A stretch of DNA of 15,758 nt from a virus. Every line of letters begins with the position of its first letter. Within the stretch, counting starts at the first letter, position 1. The notes below the pieces were generated by a model. The model was not told the origin of the DNA and did not search any database. It saw only the letters and a program-made list of their open reading frames with translations. Location of the stretch: positions 1 through 15,758 of the IMG/VR virus record IMGVR_UViG_3300033063_000067. One strand, given 5' to 3'. Below are positions 2,541-15,633 of this stretch, piece by piece. The position numbers and the translations under genes are program-made.

Positions 2541-3179
2541 ATGGCGGACACTACCTCTCAGGAACAAGAGATTCTCGAGACCGAAACGGTGGGCCAGACC
2601 GAGGCACCCGAGGTCGACCCGGCCGAGCAAGGGGAGGACCCCGAGGAAGCCGGCCTGTCGGAGGACGCTCGTCGGGCTCGCTGGCAAGCGCGCCGTCCCC
2701 GCATCGACCACCTGAAGCCCGCGGTCATTTCTACCCCGGGCGACCTCGACCCGAGCACCGGCCTGCAGGCCAACGACGTCCTCGTCCTCTTCGACGTCGG
2801 CGACCGGATCGTTGTTGATTGTAGGACACCTATCTTGACGGGTGCTCCCTGGCTGCAGACCATCGTCGGCAAGGTCCGGTCGATCGATGACGACACCGGA
2901 CTCGTCAGCATCTACGACGAGGACTCCGACCCACGTAATCCGATGGTCAGGTGGGTCACATTCAAGGACGAGTACCACGATTTCCGCCTCGCTCCGGCCA
3001 AGGGCAATCCCTTCAATGCCGAGAAGATCAAGGCCGTTCGTCCGCCGCCGGCGCCCGGCGAAGAGCGCCGCGGTCGCGGCCGGCCCAAGGGTTCCAAGAA
3101 TCGTCCGAAGGAAGAGATCAATGCAGAGCGTGAGGCATACAAGAAGCTCAGAGACGAGCGGAAGGGACGGCGCAAGTGA
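2541..3179 (+). CDS. Acidic N-terminus protein with a C-terminal AT-hook DNA-binding motif. Loose member of the PGD beta-motif family.
   Basis: 212 aa. The N-terminus is rich in E and D. The C-terminus carries RGRGRPKGSKNRPK (GRP core with flanking K/R, i.e. an AT-hook) and a basic tail. The middle carries LQANDVLVLFDVGDRIVV. Third-position GC bias supports this frame. The antisense ORFs look like artifacts. Confidence 0.7.
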   Translation: MADTTSQEQEILETETVGQTEAPEVDPAEQGEDPEEAGLSEDARRARWQARRPRIDHLKPAVISTPGDLDPSTGLQANDVLVLFDVGDRIVVDCRTPILTGAPWLQTIVGKVRSIDDDTGLVSIYDEDSDPRNPMVRWVTFKDEYHDFRLAPAKGNPFNAEKIKAVRPPPAPGEERRGRGRPKGSKNRPKEEINAEREAYKKLRDERKGRRK

Positions 3180-3469
3180 AGGCACTGAGACACCACCTGG
3201 CCGCGGCACACATCTGGTTGTTCCGCGCCGGCTTTGATCCCAAGGCGGTCGACGTCAACGGGTTGCCGCTGACCGAGTCTTTGGCCTTCACCTTTGGGCA
3301 GTTCGAGCGCGATGGTCGCCGCGAGGCCATGTACCAGTACCTCGAAAATGCGCCAAGCCAGCGTTCCGGCCGGCACCTCATCCTCGTCGCTGAGGAAGAT
3401 GAAATCACAGGCGTCTACAATCGCTCAGAACTCGAACGACTCGTGGCTGCAACCAAGGAGAATGGATGA
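3176..3469 (+). CDS. Hypothetical protein, 97 aa.
   Basis: GTG start in a GTGA overlap with the upstream stop. There is no in-frame ATG nearby. A GAAGGGA Shine-Dalgarno-like element lies ~11 nt upstream. Confidence 0.5.
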   Translation: MKALRHHLAAAHIWLFRAGFDPKAVDVNGLPLTESLAFTFGQFERDGRREAMYQYLENAPSQRSGRHLILVAEEDEITGVYNRSELERLVAATKENG

Positions 3470-3759
3470 TGGACCCACAAGACCTCGCAGAACGCATCTA
3501 CGACCGGGCGCTGATTGCAGACCATGTTGAGTGGTTGATCATGCGTGACCTGTTCGGAGCATTGTCACACCAGCAACGATTCGAGTGTTGGAACGTCCTC
3601 GCCCGGTTCGCTCAAGCAGAGGGTGATGACACAAAAATCAAGACGATCCACCCGCAATTGGTTCAGTTGGTCCTGGACATCTTTGGACTCAAGCTCGGTG
3701 ACAAGCCTTCAGGCATGCCTCCTGTCATCCCTGACTTCGTCAAGTTTGGTGCAACATGA
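3466..3759 (+). CDS. Hypothetical protein, 97 aa.
   Basis: ATGA start/stop overlap with the previous gene. A strong AAGGAG Shine-Dalgarno lies 8 nt upstream of the ATG. Confidence 0.65.
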   Translation: MMDPQDLAERIYDRALIADHVEWLIMRDLFGALSHQQRFECWNVLARFAQAEGDDTKIKTIHPQLVQLVLDIFGLKLGDKPSGMPPVIPDFVKFGAT

Positions 3760-3941
3760 TTGACATCAAACCTGTCAGCGCGCGGCACTGCATCGACGAA
3801 CTCACCAAGCGTGGCTACGACTCCGCCGCGATTTACCGCTACGCTTGCGCCGCTCGCAGCTGGTGTGAAAAGGACAGTGCTGAACGCAAGGTCTGGAAGG
3901 AAGTCGAAGCAAAGACGTCTCTGAGCGGCAGTGCAGGTTGA
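3756..3941 (+). CDS. Hypothetical small protein, 61 aa.
   Basis: ATGA overlap with the previous gene. Protein-like composition. Confidence 0.5.
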   Translation: MIDIKPVSARHCIDELTKRGYDSAAIYRYACAARSWCEKDSAERKVWKEVEAKTSLSGSAG

Positions 3942-3978
3942 ACGGCACTCGTGGTAAATTGACTCTAGGAGGCGCGCA

Positions 3979-4218
3979 ATGAAGCCCAAGGTTCCGACGG
4001 TTTGCATCCTGAAGTCGACGGACACGACTTACTGTGACCGCGACATCGACGAGTGTCATGAGTACGTCTTTCATGACGCCGCCCACGCGATCAAGCACTA
4101 CACTGATTCGACTACGATGAAAGCCTGTCCGGAGTGTGTTCATTGGGCACAATCTAAACTCTTCAACACCAACAACCTCACGCCCCTCGCCACGCGAGGA
4201 CTAAGGAACGACAGATGA
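3979..4218 (+). CDS. Cys/His-rich small protein, 79 aa. Putative zinc-binding.
   Basis: TAGGAGG Shine-Dalgarno immediately upstream. Cys/His pattern C-x9-C-x6-C-H...H...H...CPEC-x-H. Confidence 0.65.
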   Translation: MKPKVPTVCILKSTDTTYCDRDIDECHEYVFHDAAHAIKHYTDSTTMKACPECVHWAQSKLFNTNNLTPLATRGLRNDR

Positions 4219-13992: not shown

Positions 13993-14272
13993 AGTCATCA
14001 ATCCCAAAATCTTTGCGTTATCAAGGATCATTGATGAAAATGAGCAACCATGGCAACCTGGGGATTTCTGTCGGGCCTGGCACGATAGGAGGAGCTTAGG
14101 ATTGATCATTTCTGTTAATCATGACGAGGAATTGTTGACTCTTTGGTCGATCGCTCCACACAGTCCTAGCGGGTACTCAAACACCGCCCAATCCCAACAG
14201 ATACGTGACGAAGAAGATACTCAAATTCTACGTGATTTACAGGCTTTATTGAGTCATGATCAGGACGTATGA
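13982..14272 (+). CDS. PGD beta-motif family protein, tandem copy 1 (96 aa).
   Basis: WQPGDFCRAWHDRRSLGLIISVNHDEELLTLWSIAPH aligns residue-for-residue with copies 2 and 3 below. The start overlaps the upstream stop. Confidence 0.7.
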   Translation: MKLEVINPKIFALSRIIDENEQPWQPGDFCRAWHDRRSLGLIISVNHDEELLTLWSIAPHSPSGYSNTAQSQQIRDEEDTQILRDLQALLSHDQDV

Positions 14273-14555
14273 ACACCCGCACGAGATGGCGATCATTGCC
14301 TATGAGTCTCAAAGAGAAGGCATCCATTTGAAGCCCGGCGATTGGGTCCGACACTCGGACAGGACCGGAAGCAAGGGCATGCTCATCGCCAACACGGACG
14401 ACAGCTTGGTCGTGTTGTGGTCGATCCCGCCCGGACCCATGACCATCATTGATCCGGATGACTTCAAGCCTCGAAAAAGTGTCATGACAAGGTATGGTAC
14501 CTCTTTAGTTCGTCATGATTACTACGGAACGATCAAGATTGAGGACGTTAAGTGA
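14256..14555 (+). CDS. PGD beta-motif family protein, tandem copy 2 (99 aa).
   Basis: LKPGDWVRHSDRTGSKGMLIANTDDSLVVLWSIPPGP. ATGA-type overlap with the upstream gene. Confidence 0.7.
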   Translation: MIRTYEHPHEMAIIAYESQREGIHLKPGDWVRHSDRTGSKGMLIANTDDSLVVLWSIPPGPMTIIDPDDFKPRKSVMTRYGTSLVRHDYYGTIKIEDVK

Positions 14556-15169
14556 GTCTCAAAACTTACGATCGAGACTTTGACCACGTCAATGACGAGA
14601 TATTGCCATGGCCTTTCAACGTCATTGACGAAGATGGCGTCATTGTCATCGACTCTTGGCATGACATCGTTCCCGGCAAGTGGGTCACCCATAAGACTGC
14701 AGGTGGCAAGGGATTAGTCATCGCCGTCACTGACGACCAGTTGACGGTCCTGTGGTCAGATCCTCCCGGGATCACGGGCTTTTCCAACATCGCATTTCCC
14801 ATCATCAGACGAGTCCAACCTGCGCTCATTCGTAATGAACTTGTTGGCATTCAACCAATGACGGCACCGACCGGACTGATCTTCTACATGGACTACACCT
14901 ACGGTGATGATATCGACAAAAAGTGTAGCGAGGGACCTCTATGGGATAGACTTCGGTGGAAGGCGGTCCGACTGTGGAGAACACGCATCCGATCACAATT
15001 ATCATCTTTGTCCTCCTGGTGTCGCTCGCGGTTTGGCAAGAAATTGTCATCAAGCGAAAATCGAGTGTTCGGACCAAAGTTGACGCAGGACGACCTGATC
15101 ATCAAAGCGACAATCGAGAGGATGGCGAAGGGTGATCAAGCTAGCGGATCGCGGTTTTTCCGTCGGTGA
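14552..15169 (+). CDS. PGD beta-motif family protein, tandem copy 3. The C-terminal ~70 aa of the ORF is low-complexity and of doubtful authenticity.
   Basis: GTG start in a GTGA overlap. IVPGKWVTHKTAGGKGLVIAVTDDQLTVLWSDPPG matches the family. The ORF tail RIRSQLSSLSSWCRSRFGKK is Arg/Ser-rich and overlaps a better-looking alternate-frame small TM ORF. Confidence 0.55.
   Translation: MSLKTYDRDFDHVNDEILPWPFNVIDEDGVIVIDSWHDIVPGKWVTHKTAGGKGLVIAVTDDQLTVLWSDPPGITGFSNIAFPIIRRVQPALIRNELVGIQPMTAPTGLIFYMDYTYGDDIDKKCSEGPLWDRLRWKAVRLWRTRIRSQLSSLSSWCRSRFGKKLSSSENRVFGPKLTQDDLIIKATIERMAKGDQASGSRFFRR
14956..15135 (+). CDS. Candidate small membrane protein (~53-59 aa) in the alternate frame. It is hidden inside the tail of ORF 14552..15169.
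   Basis: The frame opens at 14950. GTG starts are available at 14956 and 14974. The translation reads ...VENTHPITIIIFVLLVSLAVWQEIVIKRKSSVRTKVDAGRPDHQSDNREDGEG, a textbook TM helix followed by basic residues. Its stop TGA 15133..15135 forms a GTGA overlap with the start of the next gene (15132). Confidence 0.35.
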   Translation: MEGGPTVENTHPITIIIFVLLVSLAVWQEIVIKRKSSVRTKVDAGRPDHQSDNREDGEG

Positions 15170-15530
15170 CCTTGTCACCTTTGATTCTGACGAGGAATCA
15201 ACAGGAGGCGTCATCTTTCAGATTGCGGTGAATTTCGATTCACCCATTCCGGAAGGTTCTCGACGCTACGGTGCACAACACGTTCATCCCGAGACGGGCA
15301 AACCACTGAAGCCCATGGAGGTCGAGGGTTACCTGCGCCTGAAGCCGTTATTTTCGTTCTTCCCCACCTCACGTGGTAAGAAGCCCAAAGGCGCGGGAGC
15401 GACCGTCCTCGTCTACCACCGACAACTTCAGTGGATGCGAAAGATCGAGCTCCTGGAACTGGCGACTCGCTATGCCGAGCTCGGCAACATCATCAGGGAC
15501 GTGGCACGACAAGGCGGCATGGAGGGTTGA
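15132..15530 (+). CDS. Hypothetical protein, 132 aa. It has the PGD-like N-terminal motif (FSVGDLVTF) and the conserved C-terminal L-E-L-A-T-R-Y-A-E-L-G motif.
   Basis: The C-terminus LLELATRYAELGNIIRDVARQGG matches the 1701..2414(-) and 12576..12896 C-termini. GTG start. Confidence 0.65.
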   Translation: MIKLADRGFSVGDLVTFDSDEESTGGVIFQIAVNFDSPIPEGSRRYGAQHVHPETGKPLKPMEVEGYLRLKPLFSFFPTSRGKKPKGAGATVLVYHRQLQWMRKIELLELATRYAELGNIIRDVARQGGMEG

Positions 15531-15531
15531 G

Positions 15532-15633
15532 ATGACCGTCGATTGGTGCACCGTCTACGTCGGAGTCAAACGCGGTCTAAAGCCAGTTGGCCTGGTCTTG
15601 GTCTTCTGGCTGGCCTTCATGAACCTCCGTTAG
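15532..15633 (+). CDS. Small hydrophobic peptide, 33 aa. It is below the ORF-track cutoff.
   Basis: ATG 15532 follows a GGAGGG Shine-Dalgarno at ~6-nt spacing and comes just after the upstream TGA. The translation is MTVDWCTVYVGVKRGLKPVGLVLVFWLAFMNLR, with a hydrophobic C-terminal half. Confidence 0.45.
   Translation: MTVDWCTVYVGVKRGLKPVGLVLVFWLAFMNLR

Follow-up and report, generated by a model that had tools for sequence, protein, structure and literature searches.

Small proteins that each carry one capsid-protein segment lie beside a major vault protein gene in a probable huge-phage accessory block

We analyzed a window of 15,758 nt that comprises an entire 15.8-kb contig, the IMG/VR virus record IMGVR_UViG_3300033063_000067, so that its own flanks cannot be read. 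It contains 145 open reading frames (ORFs) of at least 40 aa. From these, genes were selected using their translations, a codon-usage log-likelihood trained on long genes and GC content by codon position, and start codons were refined from orthologues. The resulting set consists of 30 co-directional genes on the plus strand (2541–15530), among them the gene for a full-length homologue of the major vault protein (MVP) and, downstream of it, four genes for small proteins with segments of a T4-type major capsid protein (MCP). The original prediction, made from the DNA letters, had described a unidirectional ∼13-kb array of ∼35 coupled genes. The unidirectional, compact gene chain is borne out, but the count falls to 30, with five ORFs (15373–15633, 4716–4919, 12538–12723, 12893–13180, and 13695–13985) excluded as alternative-frame readings that lack homologues and whose coding scores are negative or close to zero. 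We regard the array ORFs as real genes because related contigs encode homologues of 24 of the 30 proteins. The view that nearly all products are orphans thus holds with respect to annotated families, but not with respect to metagenomic relatives.

A profile search identified exactly four members of one protein family in the window, starting at positions 12874, 13982, 14256, and 14552 and together spanning 12874–15169. Each has a shared N-terminal β domain of ∼60–70 aa, termed N-dom here, which begins with “MSLKTY...” and continues with the signature PGDxVxH...G.G.(I/V)(I/V)A...(V/I)LWS..P, and which is followed by one short MCP segment. The clearest case is gene 29, which matches the T4 gp23 capsid protein family in Pfam (Gp23, PF07068) at positions 2–47 of 376 (E = 2.6e-13) and phrog_138 (E = 1.4e-11). 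By tblastn, it matches capsid genes from 325 phage records, in each case over no more than 57% of its length, and its family profile aligns with residues 96–134 of T4 gp23 in the PDB. Gene 28 carries the extreme C terminus of the MCP, as seen with our own hidden Markov model (HMM) of full capsid proteins (positions 432–467, E = 3e-8), with Pfam Gp23 (positions 328–356, E = 0.003), and in tblastn matches to the C-terminal ends of capsid genes (E = 1e-4). The mid segment of gene 24 is weak in the window itself (E = 0.98 with our HMM and 0.05 in another search) and clear in its orthologues: at related locus L005 it matches Pfam Gp23 positions 136–175 (E = 2e-7), and at L103 it matches the MCP of the same genome (E = 1e-13). 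The helix of gene 27 was matched to the MCP spine helix, which directly adjoins the mid segment in the MCP, by eye and from weak scores (L009, HMM positions 267–292, E ∼ 1; L103 versus its own MCP residues 412–434, E = 0.05). Here and below, L numbers denote related loci on metagenomic or viral contigs and P numbers denote representative proteins of the N-dom family.

Our MCP HMM was run against the six reading frames of the window and of three relatives (L004, L005, and L009). The N-terminal piece (HMM positions 58–107) and the C-terminal piece (positions 403–468) are present in all four loci. The mid piece (positions 230–268) is found in L005 (E = 7.5e-9), in L004 (E = 0.0035) and, at the score given above, in window gene 24. 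The spine helix piece (positions 267–292) scores faintly and is recognized by eye in window gene 27, L004, L005, L009, and L103. No frame of the window or of the three relatives has a match to positions 108–229 or 293–402. We would expect a capsid protein to match most of PF07068 or to comprise ∼350 aa or more. As the N-dom proteins cover about 12% of the profile, we consider them MCP-derived proteins rather than MCPs. We also considered N-dom as the natural N terminus of the clade's real MCP; this was ruled out by the ordinary N termini of the real MCPs that are closest to the pieces (L020, L031, L044, and L230) and by the profile search described below, in which no N-dom was fused to a full MCP. 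Our search for relatives with the gene 29 family is dominated by genuine capsid genes. The original prediction had found no phage or plasmid hallmark gene. Indeed the window holds no intact one, but four of its ORFs carry gp23-type capsid pieces, two of them weak when taken alone.

The N-dom family is broad. When the N-dom profile was compared exhaustively with 1.84 billion cluster representatives by HMMER, it returned 357 matches at E ≤ 1e-3. Among the best 150 of these, nearly all proteins are 58–243 aa long and have N-dom at the N terminus; together with members found earlier, they form the set of 155 representatives that we examined. Three long matches (P0144, P0153, and P0236) are unrelated repeat proteins and were rejected. 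One MCP piece stands right after N-dom in 79 of the 155 representatives (54 N-terminal, 15 C-terminal, and 10 mid pieces). About nine further representatives have the helix motif, and several others have degenerate N-terminal or mid pieces. None of the 155 contains two kinds of MCP piece or a full MCP. Four proteins from outside the window (P0175, P0213, P0269, and P0275) carry a piece of the T4 portal protein instead (Pfam Portal_T4 (Gp20), positions 284–316, E = 6e-4 to 6e-3), and tblastn with this portal-type tail gave a single match, to an annotated portal gene (E = 0.6). Other tail types have no assignment, such as “YNPLxxDEDIYIPV” in ∼11 representatives and “NPCGEVPL” in ∼5. In P0156 (154 aa), a single ORF holds two N-dom units, with a mid piece behind the first and a C-terminal piece behind the second; either neighbouring genes have fused naturally here or the ORF is an artefact of gene calling.

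Ten orthologues of gene 29 (139–229 aa, 45–60% identity) share its architecture and retain the basic helical tail. There are 21 invariant columns in this family, half of which lie within the MCP-derived stretch (Arg-86, Val-88, Gln-101, Pro-102, Met-103, Pro-106, Phe-111, Tyr-112, Asp-114, and Tyr-115 are the invariant residues there). Orthologue pairs have intact ORFs, and their proportion of nonsynonymous differences (pN = 0.30–0.49) lies well below the saturated proportion of synonymous differences (pS = 0.65–0.89), so the genes are under purifying selection rather than in decay. The order of the pieces is conserved as well: mid, helix, C-terminal, and N-terminal pieces follow one another downstream of the MVP gene in the window, L004, L005, and L009, and part of this order is seen in L015, L103, L104, L108, and L113. 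An N-dom array lies downstream of the MVP gene on the same strand in L004, L015/16, L098, L101–104, L107, L108, L113, and L118, which are all the loci of the MVP clade at ≥61% identity whose downstream flank has N-dom ORFs. The array is absent near MVP in clades at ≤50% identity, two of which have a full MCP ∼8.5 kb upstream of MVP. No member of the N-dom family was found in deposited phage genomes (50,697 records).

We calculated AlphaFold2 models using the family alignments. N-dom is predicted to be a small β domain with confidence (predicted local distance difference test (pLDDT) values of 82–92 in gene 29 and 77–81 in gene 28), and the gene 29 model contains a long helix at residues 130–161. 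The MCP piece of gene 29 mostly has pLDDT values below 50, and the tail of gene 28 averages ∼50. In these models the MCP pieces thus resemble peptides without a structure of their own, as displayed peptides would be. Fold look-ups for N-dom returned the Spt5 KOW domain as the best PDB sequence match (E = 0.47), a Pfam Tudor_1_RapA match for one member (E = 6e-4), and no match in BFVD. N-dom would thus be an SH3/Tudor/KOW-like barrel without an assignable family.

The protein encoded by gene 20 is collinear with eukaryotic MVP, its residues 514–860 aligning with residues 473–830 of rat/human MVP (E = 1e-23). It thus has the shoulder and the cap-helix region and the size of ∼850–900 aa by which we define an MVP. 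Its N-terminal vault repeats remain below the Pfam cut-offs (Vault_3, 24.4 versus 28.8 bits; Vault, 17 versus 27). The codon bias of gene 20 is much stronger than that of its neighbours (GC content at third codon positions is 0.82 versus 0.55–0.70). By tblastn we obtained full-length matches at 39–42% identity in LR756500, LR756501, and LR756503 (“uncultured phage”, 462 and 735 kb). There are 5,681 MVP homologues below E = 1e-30, and those at 60–80% identity lie on contigs of 294,177–351,447 bp; an MVP alignment search found 240 MVP-encoding viral contigs in IMG/VR, up to 501 kb in length. In the two more distant MVP clades represented by L120 and L166 (∼40% identity), an intact capsid gene (∼1500–3100 and ∼1059–2600, respectively) lies ∼8.5 kb upstream of MVP, which is located at 10001 in both. 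MVP may belong to, or may have come from, a head-gene neighbourhood.

We found no nucleotide-level match of the window in 50,697 phage records or by megablast in 72,556 plasmids (PLSDB), and neither an exact-protein look-up nor a 51-mer scan of IMG/VR and JGI contigs returned a longer contig that carries it; among contigs with its proteins, the window is the longest. The window proteins do map onto related loci (L102, L108, L113, and L104), where they keep their order to either side of MVP. L113, for example, has the order phosphoribosyltransferase-like protein, g2541, g3979, g4215, g6893, MVP, g11950, g12269, g12841, g13256, g13720, g13982, g14256, and g14552. The close MVP clade in IMG/VR includes uncultivated viral genomes (UViGs) of 309,433, 340,433, and 369,475 bp, and a 346-kb ENA contig is also collinear. 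The closest relatives, L004 (74% identity in MVP), L103, L108, and L113, are IMG/VR UViGs and have thus been classed as viral by an independent pipeline. In the 309-kb genome IMGVR_UViG_3300037010_002844, MVP and the N-dom block are located at ∼1–24 kb (L103), and an intact T4-like MCP of 630 aa is encoded at ∼165 kb (L230), ∼150 kb away from the block. This MCP matches phrog_138, “major head protein”, with E = 1e-70 and is 81% identical to another IMG/VR MCP; several other samples hold an MVP-block contig together with an MCP contig of the same type. Since the window is collinear with MVP loci in viral contigs of 309–369 kb, one of which has an intact MCP, we consider it probable that the window is part of an uncultivated huge-phage genome (∼310–370 kb, with T4-type head genes) and that 2541–15530 is the MVP-centred accessory block of this clade, an assessment that applies to the explanation as a whole.

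The flanks of the relatives contain genes for IF-1, NinI-like phosphatases, a GT2-TPR protein, a cellulase-like protein, and Band_7 and AAA proteins. The flanks at L005 (12553–12819), L015 (18828–19088), L099 (1674–2396), and L102 (12728–16082) include an IF-1 homologue, a GIY-YIG protein gene that directly adjoins an N-dom gene, and genes for a 646-aa Band_7 protein and a 425-aa AAA protein that are inserted between MVP and the N-dom array. The IF-1 and NinI-like genes, the phrog_24725 and phrog_3424 matches, and the gene pair shared with Synechococcus phage S-SRM01 lend further support to the phage assignment.

Two points weigh against the phage assignment: no intact gene for virion, replication, or packaging functions was found in the window, and its phage identity rests on synteny with the relatives and on the computational classification by IMG/VR. 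That the block would instead be cargo of an integrative and conjugative element (ICE), a plasmid or another non-viral element, or part of a bacterial chromosome, is suggested by this lack of phage genes and by the fact that MVP homologues reportedly occur in bacteria too (10.1101/2023.11.10.566534). Such an origin appears highly improbable to us, given the lack of a plasmid match, the absence of any relaxase, integrase, or type IV secretion system gene from the window and from more than 100 kb of the relatives' flanks, in which no plasmid replicon was seen either, and the syntenic blocks in 309–369-kb IMG/VR viral contigs, one with its own T4-like MCP. Moreover, the contigs of the relatives cluster at 294–370 kb, as complete huge-phage genomes would. 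The original prediction had left the element type undecided between phage early region or jumbo-phage accessory block and ICE/plasmid cargo; the synteny of the relatives now favours the jumbo-phage block and speaks against the cargo option.

Table 1. Features of the window in order of position; the array comprises genes 1–30
Feature	Coordinates (nt)	Strand	Size	Description
Gene outside the array	1701–2414	−	237 aa	C-terminal half corresponds to family 2
Divergent intergenic region	2415–2540		126 nt	Between minus-strand genes (843–2414) and array
Gene 1	2541–3179	+	212 aa	Acidic N terminus, basic C terminus; homologues upstream of MVP in L004, L102, L103, L104, L109, L113
Genes 2–7	3176–3469, 3466–3759, 3756–3941, 3979–4218, 4215–4538, 4535–4702	+	55–107 aa	No family match
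Gene 8	4702–4884	+	60 aa	Zinc-ribbon-like, Cys/Arg-rich; phrog_3424, E = 9e-8
Genes 9–10	4928–5380, 5407–5820	+	150 aa, 137 aa	Homologues in L015/L016 and L004
Genes 11–12	5817–6715	+	115 aa, 184 aa	Overlapping pair: N-terminal transmembrane protein and lipoprotein
Genes 13–19	6715–6930, 6893–7141, 7141–7347, 7344–7820, 7795–8085, 8153–8848, 8845–9129	+	68–231 aa	No family match
Gene 20	9229–11892	+	887 aa	MVP homologue, full-length; MVP_shoulder (PF11978), residues 563–670, E = 3e-29
Hairpin	11921–11948	+		10-bp GC-rich hairpin, then U-rich tail; directly 3′ of MVP stop; z = −3.5
Genes 21–22	11974–12282, 12269–12541	+	102 aa, 90 aa	Same post-MVP position in L005, L113, L108, L107
Gene 23	12576–12896	+	106 aa	Family 2 paralogue; small β region and C-terminal helix (LVDLATEYAKFG...)
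Gene 24	12874–13374	+	166 aa	N-dom (E = 7e-18); MCP mid segment IFSHSRKLRATWTVQEP (13075–13137); conserved acidic tail
Genes 25–26	13337–13693, 13720–13992	+		Among the N-dom genes, without N-dom; same position in L102, L108, L113
Gene 27	13982–14272	+	96 aa	N-dom (E = 2e-17); helix segment QQIRDEEDTQILRDLQALL (14186–14251) resembling MCP spine helix
Gene 28	14256–14555	+	99 aa	N-dom; extreme MCP C terminus, last ∼35 residues (14442–14549)
Gene 29	14552–15169	+	205 aa	N-dom (residues 2–74); MCP N-terminal segment (residues 73–121; 14768–14914); conserved basic helical tail
Gene 30	15132–15530	+	132 aa	Family 2 paralogue; overlaps gene 29 by 38 nt, as in L005

The genes of the array are tightly packed (Table 1). 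Starts overlap the preceding gene at 21 of the 29 junctions, by 4 nt in ten cases, by 1 nt in three, and by 11–38 nt in eight; the other eight junctions are gaps that sum to 413 nt, or 3% of 12,990 nt. With few corrections, these junctions agree with those originally listed. The ATGA motifs at 3466, 3756, 4215, 4535, 5817, and 7344, the GTGA motifs at 3176 and 14552, and the TTGA at 8845 are present. So are TGATG and TAATG, whose listed positions, 4702 and 7141, refer to the ATG. At the GTGA at 15132, stop and start do not overlap, as the preceding gene ends only at 15169, which leaves the 38-nt overlap given in Table 1. Two junctions can be added, a TTGA at 6161 and an overlap of 1 nt at 6715. 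The array is very compact. Because so many starts overlap the preceding stop codon, its genes are most likely transcribed into a few polycistronic mRNAs and coupled in translation.

Judged from its position, the divergent intergenic region upstream of gene 1 is a likely start point of array transcription, and no strong σ70 match was found in it. Promoter-like and terminator-like consensus sites in the window show no excess over shuffled sequences, and scans of the window for tRNAs, Rfam families, and the T4 late-promoter motif TATAAATA returned nothing above chance. The hairpin behind the MVP gene is terminator- or attenuator-like, and there is likely at least one internal transcript boundary; a single 13-kb transcript is not assured because of this hairpin and its U-rich tail.

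Outside the N-dom genes, few array proteins resemble known families. Genes 2–7 overlap by 4 nt at five of their six junctions, and several of genes 13–19 have homologues near MVP in the relatives. The codon-usage score of gene 8 is negative because of the composition of its product. Gene 11 (g5817) has a weak phrog_26268 match (E = 7e-4), and gene 12 (g6161) encodes a lipoprotein with the lipobox LAISAC that matches phrog_24725 (E = 4e-28). This pair is also adjacent in Synechococcus phage S-SRM01, and the two are the only genes besides MVP that the window shares with deposited phages; Clostridium phage phi3626 (Gp45) and Vibrio phages have relatives of the lipoprotein only. Genes 23 and 30 and the C-terminal half of the minus-strand protein at 1701–2414 form a second family (gene 23 matches the latter two with E = 2e-6 and 9e-6), assigned to no known family or fold and recognizable by a “VGDL(V/C)xY” β region and a C-terminal helix “L(V/L)(D/E)LAxxYAxLG...”. 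Family 2 genes flank the N-dom array on both sides in several lineages (L005, 1879–2289, 4620–5084, and 5128–5499; L009, 2016–2336). When compared with other virion proteins, the family 2 helix and the other small window proteins gave no match.

To the left of the array, the 280-aa protein encoded at 843–1685 on the minus strand has a phosphoribosyltransferase domain at its C terminus only (PF00156, residues 210–279, E = 7e-8), and a 26%-identical relative lies on the same side of MVP in L113. Seven GATCTG copies, several of them 11 nt apart, occur at 166–316 within an ORF-poor, GC-rich (63%) stretch of 842 nt at the left end of the window. This cluster could be iteron-like or a group of Dam sites and could mark an origin or a regulatory region.

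What might the N-dom proteins do? The copied MCP segments are presumably core elements of the HK97 fold that would become buried once the MCP has folded. If so, an isolated copy of such a segment can only meet partners that see unassembled or nascent protein. N-dom proteins would then display conserved, normally buried, linear head-protein segments to whatever recognizes unassembled MCP, be it host factors (EF-Tu, chaperonins), immune sensors, or the phage's own unfolded MCP or portal protein. In T4, the interaction of the Gol region of gp23 with EF-Tu activates Lit, a host suicide protease of prophage e14, and CapRel reportedly senses the MCP. The T4 gp23 residues to which gene 29 aligns overlap the Gol region, whose coordinates we take to be 93–122. 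No region of gp23 is better conserved than Gol, which is located in the protein's first quarter, contacts domains II–III of EF-Tu, and inhibits the EF-Tu GTPase (PMC3014915). Avs7/Dsr1 sense the MCP with EF-Tu as a component (PMC13581612). The location of the gene 29 piece fits the Gol region, as both are found in the first quarter of gp23. We tentatively prefer the reading that N-dom proteins act as decoys or competitors for host factors or sensors that bind nascent capsid or portal protein (EF-Tu/Lit-, CapRel-, or Avs/Dsr-type), although its chances are below even. It is ranked first because the accessory block lies 150 kb from the capsid gene and because both copied proteins are known immune triggers. 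A fuller proposal, also less likely than not, is that the array provides “self-peptide” mimics which occupy host factors or sensors of unassembled capsid and portal. It would amount to an anti-defence system assembled from parts of its own trigger, perhaps acting jointly with the vault protein encoded next to it.

Several points weigh against this reading or against the capsid homologies on which it builds. Known capsid sensors mostly recognize proteins in their folded state, and one would expect a Gol-like peptide to activate a Lit-type protease rather than to block it. In the 309-kb UViG, the pieces are ∼37–54% identical to the MCP of the same genome, so the mimicry is inexact and the pieces are old paralogues, not recent copies. 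The mid and spine helix pieces of the window are weak alone and become credible only through their orthologues, and in some orthologues the piece is truncated or decayed (L009, 998–1327; P0173; P0204). Finally, of the seven full capsid proteins in our HMM, six were fetched, and the T4 gp23 sequence was entered by hand; the mapping to T4 gp23 is independently confirmed by the PDB match.

N-dom proteins may alternatively serve the phage's own head morphogenesis by chaperoning or capping unfolded MCP, by tuning capsid size, or as prohead-targeted proteins. The presumed HK97 core character of the pieces (N-terminal segment, strand and spine helix after the E-loop, C-terminal strands) and the existence of portal pieces are consistent with such a role, and a huge capsid made of 630-aa MCPs could require additional control of its assembly. 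We nevertheless find it a less likely role, one that deserves serious consideration: the genes belong to an accessory block of small genes at a distance of ∼150 kb from the capsid gene, not to the structural module, the corresponding segments are presumably occupied intramolecularly in the folded MCP, and no prohead-protease or scaffold homology was detected in the window proteins.

It is improbable that the proteins are directed against competitors, as dominant-negative poisons of capsid assembly in co-infecting T4-like phages. Pieces from the segments most conserved across gp23-type capsids would match many competitors, but they are equally similar to the phage's own MCP (about 50–54% identity), and no immunity mechanism is evident.

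The pieces could also be functionless remnants of a duplicated capsid gene. Only short pieces are left, their extent varies among orthologues, some copies are truncated or degenerate, and the full MCPs near MVP in L120 and L166 indicate that a capsid gene may once have been nearby. Decay of this kind is, however, very improbable in view of the intact ORFs and low pN at saturated synonymous sites. The same four architectures recur in a family of 357 representatives (155 examined), MCP-derived residues are among the invariant columns, every piece is in frame directly after the same N-dom, and the gene order is kept.

Least probable of all is a split capsid protein whose four parts reassemble through N-dom into a capsid-like fold: the pieces together cover elements that would belong to the HK97 P-domain and two of them are contiguous in the MCP, but only ∼160 of some 470 profile positions are present, with 108–229 and 293–402 missing from all frames scanned, the order in the genome is permuted with the N-terminal piece last, and a related genome has an intact MCP. 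The remaining probability falls to something else.

Seen as a whole, the array as such appears to be an ordinary huge-phage accessory region, and what is apparently undescribed is the architecture of N-dom plus a single head-protein segment. In the literature we found no description of a small barrel fused to a single capsid or portal segment. Among the copied segments is the stretch of gp23 that is conserved best, and capsid and portal are prime targets of bacterial innate immunity. Should the N-dom proteins be mimics that blunt this sensing, or that steer the folding of head proteins, they would represent a new principle in phage–host conflict or in giant-capsid assembly. In addition, the fixed order of the N-dom array beside a phage vault protein may offer a first handle on the role of MVP in phages.

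Other small proteins are known whose action depends on contacting the capsid protein or the prohead, namely P4 Sid, CpmB-type proteins of phage-inducible chromosomal islands, and the T4 internal proteins with a capsid-targeting sequence. Unlike N-dom proteins, these are not made of capsid-protein segments, and they share no sequence with them. With T4 gp23 itself (PF07068), gene 29 has the residue 96–134 segment in common, and genes 24, 27, and 28 have other gp23-type segments, but N-dom proteins hold only 20–60 residues of the ∼376-position profile and hold them on an unrelated β-barrel. They resemble anti-defence decoys and sponges, such as mimic proteins and nucleotide sponges, in being small proteins from an accessory region, and capsid and portal, which they copy, are known triggers of sensing by CapRel and Avs7/Dsr1 (PMC13581612). 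In contrast to N-dom proteins, no known anti-defence protein was found to be built from pieces of the phage's own trigger, and the likeness in function is speculative. The accessory regions of huge phages (Al-Shayeb et al. 2020, PMC7162821; LR756500–LR756508) likewise consist of long runs of small, co-directional, and mostly unannotated genes. Translation genes such as IF-1 are found nearby in relatives of the window, which reach at least 300 kb, and MVP is encoded in LR756500, LR756501, and LR756503 (39–42% identity). The flanks of MVP in LR756500 and LR756501, however, share nothing with the window apart from MVP, and unlike those phages the clade of the window is known from metagenomic contigs only. 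Two gut Caudoviricetes proteins have been reported as the first viral MVPs (10.1101/2023.11.10.566534), and we found no literature report of a linkage between MVP and an N-dom array. The window has in common with that report a full-length MVP homologue in a probable tailed-phage genome, around which the block is organized. It differs in that two proteins are presented in the report and 240 MVP-encoding IMG/VR contigs were found here, and in that the N-dom array consistently follows the MVP gene in one clade.

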